From an uncultured bacterium (GTDB lineage: Bacteria > Chloroflexota > UBA5177 > JANWHV01): a stretch of DNA of 64,000 nucleotides. Where the stretch lies: contig CAVSOU010000011.1 in assembly GCA_963729625.1 (NCBI GenBank), positions 288,001-352,000 on the forward strand, written 5' to 3'. The notes under the pieces are model-generated. The model did no database searches. It was not told where the DNA came from and was given only the letters and a program-made list of their open reading frames with translations. How positions within the stretch are numbered: position 1 is the first letter of the stretch; each line of letters begins with the position of its first letter. Shown in pieces: positions 28,815 to 31,300 of this stretch. The position numbers were made by a program, and so were the translations under genes.

Positions 28815-29987
28815 TCAGGGCAGTTCATTCCAGGTCTGCCCGTCGTCGTCGCTGCGGTAGATGCCGGTGGCTGCCCCCGCATACGCGGTGGCGCTGCCTT
28901 GCGCGACGAGCAGGTTCCAGAACTGCAGTCGGTCCGTCGCATCAGGTGCCGGCGCTATTCTGGCGCGAGTCCACGTGGCGCCTTCATCCACCGACCGGTA
29001 GATGTTGCCGAAGTCAGTGAACAGCACGGTATGCGTGCGGGTCAGCGCCGCGAAGGAAATCACCGCCGGTTCGGCCAGTGCGCTGGTCACTCCAGCTTTT
29101 CTTGCGGCCCACGCCATGGACCAGTGCCCGCCGCCATCCCGCGACCGGTAGACGACTGCCGTAAAATACGTCAGGTCGACGCCAATGAACAGATCCGCCG
29201 GGCGCCAGGGCGCCGCGAAGAACGCCGAGATCCCGGCAAGATGGGAGAGCGCGTTTCGATCTTCGGTGCCGGACAGCACGGAGACCGGCTGCCAGGTCTG
29301 CCCGTCATCCGACGAGCGATAGAGTGAACCGGGGCCGCGATACGTCGTGCTCGGCAAGACTGACTTGCTCCTGGGTGCAAGCAGCGCTAGGAAAGTGCCG
29401 TCGGGAAGTGCGATAACGTTGCGGGTCTCCAGAATCGGTGGCCCGACAGGATGCCACGACCGGCCGCCATCCACGCTACGCGCCAGGCCTTGTAGGCAGC
29501 GGCGATTCTTCTCGGTGGCCTGGTAGTCTTGCGGGCAGACGAACGAGAGCACAAGAGTGCCGCGCGGCGAAGTGGCAATGCTTACTGGGAGGATCGCCGT
29601 GCGCGCCAGCCCGGTCGTGGCGCTGGCCCATGTTCGACCATCGTCCTCGCTGCGATAGAGCGTCTGGCTTGCAGGAGACGGGCTGGCGAGCCAGCTGCCA
29701 CCAGCCAGAATGGTGTGCGGCTGGCCGGGCGGCGCAACCAGCGTGCCGATCTCCACGCCGCCGGGAAAGCTAGCCAGATCGGTCCAGCACAGCACGCCAA
29801 TGGCGCTACGGTAAATGTGGCCGTCCCGCGTGCCCGCTAAGAGCGACCCACTCGGCCCGGCAGCCAGCACGCTGACGTACGGAAACGCGGTGCAGCCTGC
29901 TCGTGCTGTCCCATGGGCCGGAACAAACCCAGGGAGCAGCGCAATGAGAGCTGCGACGATCGCAGTGCGCGGAGCCGCCCTGGCCAT
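28815..29987 (-). CDS. Secreted BNR/Asp-box beta-propeller protein
   Basis: AAGGAGG RBS, signal peptide, six S.D.G..W Asp-boxes. Confidence 0.8.
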   Translation of the reverse strand: MARAAPRTAIVAALIALLPGFVPAHGTARAGCTAFPYVSVLAAGPSGSLLAGTRDGHIYRSAIGVLCWTDLASFPGGVEIGTLVAPPGQPHTILAGGSWLASPSPASQTLYRSEDDGRTWASATTGLARTAILPVSIATSPRGTLVLSFVCPQDYQATEKNRRCLQGLARSVDGGRSWHPVGPPILETRNVIALPDGTFLALLAPRSKSVLPSTTYRGPGSLYRSSDDGQTWQPVSVLSGTEDRNALSHLAGISAFFAAPWRPADLFIGVDLTYFTAVVYRSRDGGGHWSMAWAARKAGVTSALAEPAVISFAALTRTHTVLFTDFGNIYRSVDEGATWTRARIAPAPDATDRLQFWNLLVAQGSATAYAGAATGIYRSDDDGQTWNELP

Positions 29988-30136
29988 TGACAACCTCCTT
30001 GGCCCAACACTCCTGCCCTACCGCCAGTCTAGTATCGCTTGGAGCAGCCGGTCAACAGGTGAGCCCGCCGTCGGTCGGCGCAGCGGGTGCCGGCTCTCTT
30101 CAACGGTGCGCGCATTTCGCCATCCCCTTGGCTTAT

Positions 30137-30159
30137 TAGAATATATGTTCTACTATGAT
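30137..30159 (+). promoter_or_regulatory. LexA-type SOS box overlapping a putative -10 element
   Basis: TAGAATATATGTTCTA is a near-palindrome with one mismatch to GAAC-N4-GTTC; TTGGCT(30128)-N17-TACTAT, or TATGAT at 30154. Confidence 0.6.
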
Positions 30160-30163
30160 TACA

Positions 30164-30420
30164 GGGCTTGTAAGCCACATCGAGCGGGAGGGGTCGAGGT
30201 GGCCTGAGCGTTGGGGATGGACCGCCTCTGGGGCAGCACTCGTTGGCCGCTCCATAGCGGCTACCAGACTACACTCAATGTAGTGGGACGACGCGATCGT
30301 GCAGGCGCGCGATGAGCCTGCGACACGGAGGACAGAATGCCTTCGGAGTATTCGAGTCGCGCTCGTAGGGCGGCATCCGTCAACTCGACCGCGCTTCCAG
30401 GCGTAGCTCGCACCGCTCAC
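30164..30420 (+). ncRNA. Candidate structured non-coding RNA of unknown family
   Basis: Nested long-range helices closing four local hairpins, one with a cUUCGg tetraloop; several G-U pairs favour the + strand; no convincing ORF. Confidence 0.5.
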
Positions 30421-30426
30421 ATCGGT

Positions 30427-30470
30427 CAATGCAACCGGCCCGACACAAGCGTATCGGGCCGGTTTCATTG
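30427..30470 (+). terminator. 17-bp stem-loop, terminator-like
   Basis: CAATGCAACCGGCCCGA pairs with TCGGGCCGGTTTCATTG (16/17); the U-tract is weak. Confidence 0.55.
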
Positions 30471-30601
30471 CATCTGGCGAAGGCGCGCTCCGCCGATCTC
30501 CCCTGGCACGGCTGAGGCCGAGCGAAGTACCCTGAGGATTGAAAGAGGTAGGCGCGGCGACCGCGGCGCGCAAGAGCACAGTGAGAAGGGCGAGACCCGT
30601 A

Positions 30602-31300
30602 ATGAAGCGCTCGGAGATCAATGCCATCATGGAGCAAAGCAAAGCCTTCCTGGATCGCATGCGGTTTCTGCTGCCGCCGTTCGCGTTCTGGTCGCCGGGC
30701 ACCTGGCGCGAAAAGGGCGAGGATTGCCGAGAGATTGTCGAAAGTCAGCTCGGGTGGGACATCACCGATTTCGGTAGCGGCGACTTCCTGCGCACGGGCT
30801 TGTTCATGTTCACGATCCGCAACGGCACGCTCGAGGAGTTGCGAAAGCAGCATGGAAAGGTCTATGCGGAGAAGATCCTTATTGTGCAGGAAGGGCAGGT
30901 AACGCCGACACACTTTCACTTCCAGAAGATGGAGGACATTATCAATCGTGGCGGCGGCGACCTGGTGATTCAACTCTGGAACTCCACTGCCGACGAGCAA
31001 TTGGCCGGCACCGACGTCGTTGTCAGCATGGATGGAGTCAGGACCACGGTTGCCGCGGCTGGAACGATTGTGCTGAAGCCGGGTATGTCTGTCTGCCTGC
31101 CTCAGCGGCTCTACCACAAGTTCTGGGGCAGCCCCGGCACTGGCACCGTGCTCGTAGGCGAGGTCAGCCGTGTCAACGACGACCAGGTTGACAATCGTTT
31201 CTTCGATCCGATTGGTCGTTTCCCGGAGATAGAGGAAGATGAGCCGCCGCTTCACCTGTTGTACAACGACTACCGCCGTTACTACAGGTTTGCGGCGTAG
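30602..31300 (+). CDS. D-lyxose/D-mannose family sugar isomerase (cupin)
   Basis: MKRSEIN, LPPFAFWS, LGWDITDFG, YAEKIL, PTHFH..KMEDIINRGGG, GEVSRVNDD. Confidence 0.9.
   Translation: MKRSEINAIMEQSKAFLDRMRFLLPPFAFWSPGTWREKGEDCREIVESQLGWDITDFGSGDFLRTGLFMFTIRNGTLEELRKQHGKVYAEKILIVQEGQVTPTHFHFQKMEDIINRGGGDLVIQLWNSTADEQLAGTDVVVSMDGVRTTVAAAGTIVLKPGMSVCLPQRLYHKFWGSPGTGTVLVGEVSRVNDDQVDNRFFDPIGRFPEIEEDEPPLHLLYNDYRRYYRFAA

Follow-up and report, generated by a model that had tools for sequence, protein, structure and literature searches.

The results of our analysis pointed to a self-contained transcription unit that may be repressed by LexA and may make an untranslated RNA of about 300 nt. This is the reading that we favored, and we considered its chances to be a little short of even. 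A LexA-type operator was found inside a promoter-like site of fitting geometry, no coding signal was detected downstream of it, and the two ends of the predicted RNA formed a closing helix that was beyond chance and that favored the + strand. We regard the locus as a candidate LexA-repressed orphan small RNA (sRNA), which is plausible but unproven.

The DNA that was analyzed, referred to here as the window, was a stretch of 64,000 nucleotides (C11:288001-352000) in an assembly of 5.4 Mb that was distributed over 21 contigs, had a GC content of 63%, and was 87% complete. A preliminary description of this DNA had placed a self-contained unit in an intergenic gap of about 600 bp. We measured the gap as 608 bp; it was located between a BNR-repeat gene (start at 29993, - strand) and a D-lyxose isomerase gene (start at 30602, + strand), as shown in Table 1. 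The wider neighborhood contained ordinary metabolic genes and nothing phage-like. The idea of a mobile element was rejected, because no direct or terminal inverted repeats flanked the unit and the neighbors were of this ordinary metabolic kind.

Table 1. Features of the candidate unit and its flanking genes (positions in the window)
Feature	Position	Strand	Basis or remark
Secreted BNR-repeat protein gene	28815-29993	-	
-35-like hexamer TTGGCT	30128-30133	+	17 nt upstream of TACTAT; 4 of 6 positions; 3 nt before the box
LexA-type operator TAGAATATATGTTCTA	30137-30152		GAAT-N4-GTTC, one core mismatch; 11 of 12 consensus positions
-10-like hexamer TACTAT	30151-30156	+	begins with the last TA of the box
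5' hairpin GGGCUUGUAAGCC	30164-30176	+	pair probabilities 0.85-1.0; at the putative transcript start
5' arm of the long, interrupted closing helix	30181-30242	+	minimum-energy fold, duplex energy
Candidate ORF of a small-peptide mRNA	34 aa from TTG 30211	+	GAGGTG 9 nt upstream, buried in the long helix
Apical multiloop	30244-30349	+	five predicted hairpins (30244-63, 30264-87 holding 30268-84, 30288-300, 30301-21, 30323-49)
Segment matched by two read-length metagenome contigs	30338-30479	+	X1, 8 differing letters; X2, 5 differing letters (match to 30446); sequence divergent upstream of 30338
3' arm of the long closing helix	30353-30424	+	minimum-energy fold, duplex energy
Terminator-like hairpin, then UUUCAUUG	30427-30470	+	-28.6 kcal/mol on +, -33.7 kcal/mol on -
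D-lyxose isomerase gene (lyxI)	30602-31300	+	followed by a family-1 glycoside hydrolase gene (GH1)

In the congener G001, both flanking genes were present on different contigs, and the segment at about 30060-30515 was missing at both of them. The D-lyxose isomerase ortholog of G001 was 82% identical, and upstream homology to the window stopped about 90 nt before the ATG. The missing segment, which spans about 455 bp between two conserved promoters, was private to the host genome among the genomes searched, and the element itself was found whole in the host genome only. Upstream of the isomerase gene, a motif of about 17 nt, GAAGTACCCTGA-G/C-G-A/G-AT, was the only block conserved between the host and G001. 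This motif (window 30520-30537 and G001 locus L009 at about 2250-2270, - strand), which preceded the start of the isomerase gene by about 70 nt, may serve that gene as an operator or as part of its promoter. On the other side of the gap, the promoter-like TTGACC-18-TAGACT of the BNR-repeat gene (window 30026-30055, - strand; locus L026 at about 1405-1436) was kept in both congeners, and everything further upstream differed.

The consensus used for the LexA box was TAGAAC-N4-GTTCTA. The preliminary description had reported a LexA-type box at 30137-30152 that overlapped a -10 element, and these coordinates were confirmed; the hexamer TACTAT covered the last two bases of the box. The LexA part of that interpretation also held, because GAAC-N4-GTTC boxes were located directly upstream of the host's own lexA and recA genes, as well as upstream of uvrB. 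In the case of lexA (C8:843394), which was the only match to the LexA DNA-binding domain in the genome, TTGAACATACGTTCTA was found about 55 nt upstream of the domain match (box at C8:843322). In the case of recA (C10:177671), TAGAACGCACGTTCAA was found just upstream (box at C10:177606). The uvrB box was at C11:386993, and boxes of the form TAGAAC-N4-GTTCTA also preceded a radical-SAM gene and several other ORFs; uvrB and these additional genes were named by eye from their translated starts.

Across the genome, 13 sites matched the LexA consensus at 11 of 12 positions, compared to 0 to 10 sites (mean, 5.4) for seven control palindromes of the same composition, which yielded 10, 7, 8, 3, 8, 0, and 2 sites. 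The exact form TAGAAY-N4-RTTCTA occurred at 3 sites in the host genome, one of which was the TAGAATATATGTTCTA site, and at 2 to 6 sites in each of four congeners; the 15 sites over all five genomes compared to 4 for a reversed-pattern control. When a crude stop-to-stop coding filter was applied, 9 of the 13 LexA-type sites fell outside coding-like ORFs, as did 18 of 38 sites for six of the controls. The 4 remaining LexA-type sites included the lexA and uvrB boxes, which were located inside coding-like ORFs but just upstream of the starts of those genes. The LexA motif was enriched in the host genome, although not overwhelmingly. Palindromes as AT rich as these also arise by chance; with 0 to 10 control sites against 13, operator function is absent from perhaps a quarter to a third of the LexA-type sites. 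On these motif counts, the TAGAATATATGTTCTA site is probably a true operator, and its promoter-like context raised this estimate further.

The box filled the spacer of a sigma-70-like promoter, TTGGCT-17-TACTAT. The geometry of this promoter (a -35 hexamer, 3 nt, the box, and a -10 hexamer that started with the final TA of the box) was identical at the SOS box at C8:776203 on the reverse strand, and the box at C10:395002, also on the reverse strand, filled a promoter spacer with similar geometry. Together, the two hexamers matched 8 of 12 consensus positions. The pair was absent from the list produced by our consensus scan because the scan required 9 of 12 matches, and the -35 hexamer contributed only 4 of 6. 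Judging from the position of the -10 hexamer, the transcript would start near 30163. The divergent BNR gene had its own promoter, TTGACC-18-TAGACT, at 30055-30026 on the - strand (82 nt from the box), and this promoter was kept in G001, where no LexA box was present. Because the BNR gene had a promoter of its own that was conserved in the box-less congener, the box most likely serves the + strand and not the BNR gene.

It had been proposed that no credible protein is encoded downstream of the box, and our results were in agreement: codon periodicity, Pfam matches, protein homologs, and hydrophobic peptides were all lacking in the region of about 270 nt. On the + strand, the ORFs within 30155-30425 were 42, 34, and 35 aa in length. 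A 146-aa ORF on the + strand started at 30337 and ran into lyxI in a different frame, and a 188-aa ORF was found on the - strand. The GC content by codon phase was flat over 30160-30425 (0.62/0.64/0.65), whereas the flanking genes (lyxI, GH1, and BNR) were periodic (0.39-0.76). No Pfam family was identified in the 188-aa and 146-aa ORFs or in 12 of the 15 open stretches of at least 25 aa (three short ones were left out). The 188-aa ORF had no relative among 5.8 billion clustered proteins in a length range of 103-329 aa. When translated queries were searched against the host's own genome, no match was found elsewhere, and the best non-self E value was 0.009 over 15 queries. A six-frame translation contained no hydrophobic peptide of the type I toxin kind; the only strings found were basic or arginine rich.

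The predicted fold was dominated by the long closing helix, whose arms (30181-30243 and 30352-30424) formed a duplex of -71.5 kcal/mol. None of 400 dinucleotide shuffles was as good (-52.7 +/- 5.0 kcal/mol), and neither was any of 600 GC-matched genomic pairs with the same spacing (mean, -47.2 +/- 7.0 kcal/mol; best, -69.4 kcal/mol). On the - strand, the corresponding duplex had an energy of -54.3 kcal/mol; therefore, the + strand was better by 17 kcal/mol. The minimum-energy fold contained nine G-U pairs, seven of which were in the closing helix; the preliminary description had counted at least five. The fold was well defined (mean pair probability, 0.92), its longest unpaired stretch was a 9-nt loop, and the apical domain alone had a folding energy of -41.3 kcal/mol.

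When the terminator was included (30160-30470), the folding energy was -149 kcal/mol, with a z score of -5.36 on the + strand and -2.97 on the - strand. When the body was folded alone (30164-30425), the energy was -119.3 kcal/mol and the z score was -2.20, with 3 of 200 shuffles as good; the z score on the - strand was -0.65. In a comparison with 1,513 random 262-nt windows of the genome (GC content within 3%), 86 folded at least as well as the body (z score, -1.53). The preliminary description had called the RNA highly structured. This was only partly upheld, because the z score of about -5.4 depended on the terminator hairpin and dropped to about -2.2 for the body. According to these folding models, only the long closing helix exceeds the genomic background, and the term is overstated.

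The six long-range helices in the preliminary description all existed at the positions assigned to them, but four had pair probabilities of about 0 to 0.02 and belonged to a poorer register. Forcing the helices of the preliminary description yielded -109.0 kcal/mol compared to -119.3 kcal/mol for the preferred fold, a loss of 10 kcal/mol. In the preferred register of the outer stem, GGTCGAG at 30192-98 paired with 30407-14 and not with 30384-90. The inner helices CCGCC/GGCGG and ACTCG/CGAGT had pair probabilities of 0.88-1.0. A multiloop was indeed predicted at the tip of the closing helix, but its hairpins differed in two respects from the four of the preliminary description: a fifth small hairpin (30288-30300) was added, and the hairpin with the cUUCGg tetraloop (30335-30353) was outcompeted. 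The latter scored -4.2, and its competitor at 30326-30345, which was flanked by the pairs 30323-24/30348-49, scored -8.4. The hairpin that ends the unit, originally given as 17 bp, was found to be an inverted repeat with 20-nt arms (30427-30446 and 30451-30470) that were 90% complementary. This hairpin was strong, but the U tract UUUCAUUG that followed it was weak, and the - strand version of the hairpin was the more stable one. Our terminator scan did not list the hairpin, which we attribute to a loop of more than 8 nt and the weak T run.

No known RNA family was recognized in the preliminary description, and Rfam 15 at gathering thresholds yielded 0 matches in the whole window. At E values up to 10, seven weak matches were obtained, and the best of these (P37, 21.9 bits compared to a threshold of 50) was located on the terminator hairpin only. 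ARAGORN identified no tRNA or tmRNA. In overall shape, the candidate was similar to 6S RNA and bacterial Y RNA, since the 5' and 3' ends of all three pair in a long interrupted helix. Both of these families were rejected. The 6S model found nothing anywhere in the genome, and the absence of the RNA from the congeners argued that it was not a 6S RNA; moreover, 6S RNA has a central bubble and is conserved, whereas the candidate had a branched tip, was not conserved even within the genus, and had no Rfam match. In the case of bacterial Y RNA, no Ro60/TROVE (PF05731) protein was found in the 87%-complete genome, and control genomes were positive.

We searched for homologs in several ways. The host's own genome contained no second copy. 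BLAST searches of 60 relatives, all 20 of the remaining class members, and 400 phylum genomes produced only matches of 22-49 nt (E values of 2e-4 to 9e-3 per genome), which were taken for chance. A covariance model was built from the single sequence 30202-30402 and the structure predicted for it; in the host genome, 100 relatives, and 150 genomes of the phylum, it recovered nothing except this same sequence. With the filters off, the model found nothing at 14 LexA-box loci of the genus, where the best score was 15.5 bits. Nothing was found in phage and plasmid collections, and exact-pattern scans of metagenome, genome, and viral contig collections yielded chance pattern matches only; four loci from the metagenome and genome contig scans matched over the pattern and no further.

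Two DNA runs (X1 and X2, which came from two studies and were labeled freshwater sediment and soil metagenome) contained a small share of the element's words. The X1 contig matched 30338-30479 with 8 differing letters, the X2 contig matched 30338-30446 with 5 differing letters, and the two contigs had most of their differences from the window in common. As for the positions that differed in the metagenome contigs, the C-to-T change at 30390 was in a bulge of the fold, the A-to-G change at 30399 kept the pair with U30205 as a G-U pair, and the C-to-A change at 30432 created a pair in the terminator stem where the window has a C-T mismatch. With regard to pairing, the two partial contigs thus gave one G-U-compatible change and one mismatch repair, a number much too small for an analysis of covariation, and no full homolog was recovered. 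Because both contigs diverged upstream of 30338, the apical domain was not conserved there. This divergence may be read in two ways: the apical domain may be variable, or the contigs may come from a gene whose last codons, 3' untranslated region (UTR), and terminator remain in the window.

From the operator, the promoter, and the fold, we infer binding by LexA, a transcript, the ends of this transcript, and any function that it has. In the mechanism that we propose, LexA in undamaged cells would occupy the operator, which takes up the spacer of TTGGCT-17-TACTAT and overlaps its -10 hexamer, and RNA polymerase would be blocked. Following DNA damage, RecA-stimulated self-cleavage of LexA would free the promoter, and transcription would proceed from near 30163 and stop at the hairpin at 30427-30470. 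The RNA would then fold into the 5' hairpin and a helix of about 55 bp with small bulges (30181-30242 x 30353-30424), capped by a branched tip of five short hairpins. Because almost no stretch longer than 9 nt is unpaired in this fold, a structured-RNA role seems likelier than the role of a classical seed-pairing sRNA, and we lean, by inference from the predicted fold only, toward a role that depends on shape. For example, a protein such as a nuclease specific for double strands might bind the RNA or cleave it.

A bolder version of this idea, which we consider rather doubtful, is that the locus makes an RNA of about 260 nt that is restricted to the lineage, repressed by LexA, and double-stranded over nearly its entire length. 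Such an RNA would act in the DNA-damage response through its shape (it would bind a protein, sequester one, or be diced by one) rather than through seed pairing, and its function would reside in the 3' 140-nt module, which would be conserved and possibly portable. In the portions of the literature returned by our search, no SOS-controlled RNA of a nearly double-stranded, shape-acting kind was described. The element is a possible addition to the LexA-controlled RNAs, which are a known if small kind, and would not constitute a new category.

Other explanations of the locus were considered. It is conceivable, though unlikely, that the segment at about 30060-30515 is junk from a rearrangement, in which case the palindrome would be either an orphaned operator or an AT-rich site that arose by chance, and the inverted repeat would be without a role. 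The absence of the segment from both flanking genes of G001, which are on different contigs there, fits with such a leftover, as do the control palindromes that reached 10 sites compared to 13 for the LexA consensus, whole-body folding that was within the genomic range, and the lack of a homolog in any collection searched. However, the box, -35 hexamer, -10 hexamer, 5' hairpin, long helix, and final hairpin were ordered and spaced like the parts of a transcription unit, the helix outperformed all 1,000 of its controls and was strand biased, and the promoter geometry was the same as that of another SOS promoter in the genome. Moreover, the recurrence of the 3' 140 nt in contigs from two metagenome runs of two studies, with only 8 and 5 differing letters, would be unexpected for junk. 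An improbable alternative is that the locus is what remains of an SOS-regulated protein gene. According to this explanation, 30338-30368 corresponds to the last codons of the gene in relatives and is followed by the 3' UTR and terminator; in the host, the coding sequence upstream of these codons would have decayed or been replaced. Homology to both metagenome contigs began sharply at 30338, and the frame that stops at TAG 30366-30368 stayed open over the 29 extra upstream letters of X2 and gave what we read as an ordinary-looking peptide; in our reading, the other two frames of these letters gave a stop or an arginine-rich string. We retained the gene remnant among the candidates because of this open frame. 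On the other hand, the frame was open for only 36 codons in the host and lacked codon periodicity (0.54/0.62/0.65), it had no Pfam match and no match in the host's own genome, and the case for it draws on 29 letters of one read-length contig. In addition, the 5' arm right behind the promoter was complementary to the supposed 3' UTR far beyond chance, which a decayed gene does not predict.

We consider the remaining two explanations very improbable. In one, the transcript is an SOS-induced mRNA for a small peptide, and its 5' and 3' parts pair so that the ribosome site is hidden, as in tisB or dinQ transcripts. A Shine-Dalgarno-like GAGGTG at 30196-30201 was in fact paired in the fold, and known LexA-controlled small loci are often toxin-antitoxin transcripts, according to the available part of PMC10907235. 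The 34-aa product, however, was basic and tryptophan rich instead of hydrophobic, codon periodicity was absent, and there was no antisense partner or conserved ORF for comparison. In the other, the box serves a neighbor, either as the control site of a long damage-inducible leader of the D-lyxose isomerase/GH1 operon, with the hairpin as an attenuator, or as a repressor site of the divergent BNR gene. The unit did point at the isomerase gene, which started 130 nt beyond the hairpin, and our consensus scan listed no + strand promoter between the hairpin and this gene. Nevertheless, the isomerase ortholog of G001 had no such leader, and the point at which upstream homology to G001 stopped, about 90 nt before the ATG, suggests that the isomerase gene has its own control region. 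The conserved BNR promoter was likewise without a box in G001. Finally, sugar genes are not expected to be SOS targets.

IstR-2/tisB, dinQ/agrB, and similar SOS toxin-antitoxin loci of enterobacteria are small LexA-controlled intergenic units with highly folded transcripts of about 300 nt. Loci of this type combine a short hydrophobic toxin with an antisense or overlapping partner RNA. The candidate is likewise a small LexA-type unit in an intergenic gap with a putative transcript of about 300 nt, but it contained no hydrophobic peptide, and no Rfam model matched it. This toxin-antitoxin class is mentioned in the available part of PMC10907235, which describes DinR of Klebsiella pneumoniae, an RNA regulator that is made from a promoter containing a LexA box and depends on it. 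DinR has a primary transcript of about 350 nt, of which the 3' 157 nt, terminator included, are conserved and functional, as stated in the same part of that source. The candidate was similar in that only its 3' 140 nt recurred in other data. It differed from DinR, as far as the available text describes the latter, in that it lacked an upstream ORF, contained no long unpaired stretch, and was not similar in sequence, and the LexA motif type and the lineage were different as well. The 9-nt maximum for unpaired stretches in the predicted fold left no seed of the kind found in DinR-type sRNAs.

Two small RNAs of Mycobacterium tuberculosis, MTS1082 and MTS2823 (Ms1), are located at LexA ChIP-seq peaks; in the portion of PMC3381160 that was available, MTS1082 showed no induction by mitomycin C, and MTS2823 had no recognizable SOS box. 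These are also small RNAs tied to LexA, in their case in a GC-rich Gram-positive bacterium. In comparison with what that portion reports, the candidate had a clear box and predicted binding only, and it had no sequence relation to either RNA.

Outside the model bacteria, what is known of SOS regulons concerns protein genes almost exclusively, and descriptions of LexA-controlled RNAs are few (DinR and the IstR type). If the candidate is indeed a damage-induced structured RNA, it would add an RNA arm to the SOS regulon of a poorly sampled lineage, whose class was represented by 21 species genomes in the set that we searched. As it stands, the candidate is one unconserved locus in one metagenome-type assembly, which makes it worth an annotation line and gives it no bearing yet on a wider question.

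Several observations were made on the other LexA boxes of the genus. A draft SOS regulon of the host was compiled from TAGAAC-N4-GTTCTA boxes at C8:843322, C10:177606, C11:386993, C11:188637, C17:168272, C10:502436, C10:395002, C8:292202, and C17:9432. It covered lexA, recA, uvrB, a SplB-like radical-SAM gene, an ORF whose helix-turn-helix resembled that of the DnaA C terminus, and several ORFs without a name; all names except lexA and recA were read by eye from translated starts. At locus L031 (G000:C8:774703-777718), two divergent units flanked the LexA box TAGAACAAATATTCTA at 1501-1516. About 58 nt after the box on one side was the start of an ORF of about 58 aa whose C-terminal stretch was hydrophobic, and by analogy of role only, this ORF may encode an SOS cell-division inhibitor. 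On the other side, a secreted ORF of about 419 aa was found behind a leader of about 125 nt. The congener G001 contained two paralogous LexA-box loci of the TAGAAT type, L041 (G001:C16:950202-953217) and L042 (G001:C19:165125-168140), with boxes at 1501-1516 and similar flanks on both sides; judging from these flanks, the two loci are a duplicated SOS unit.
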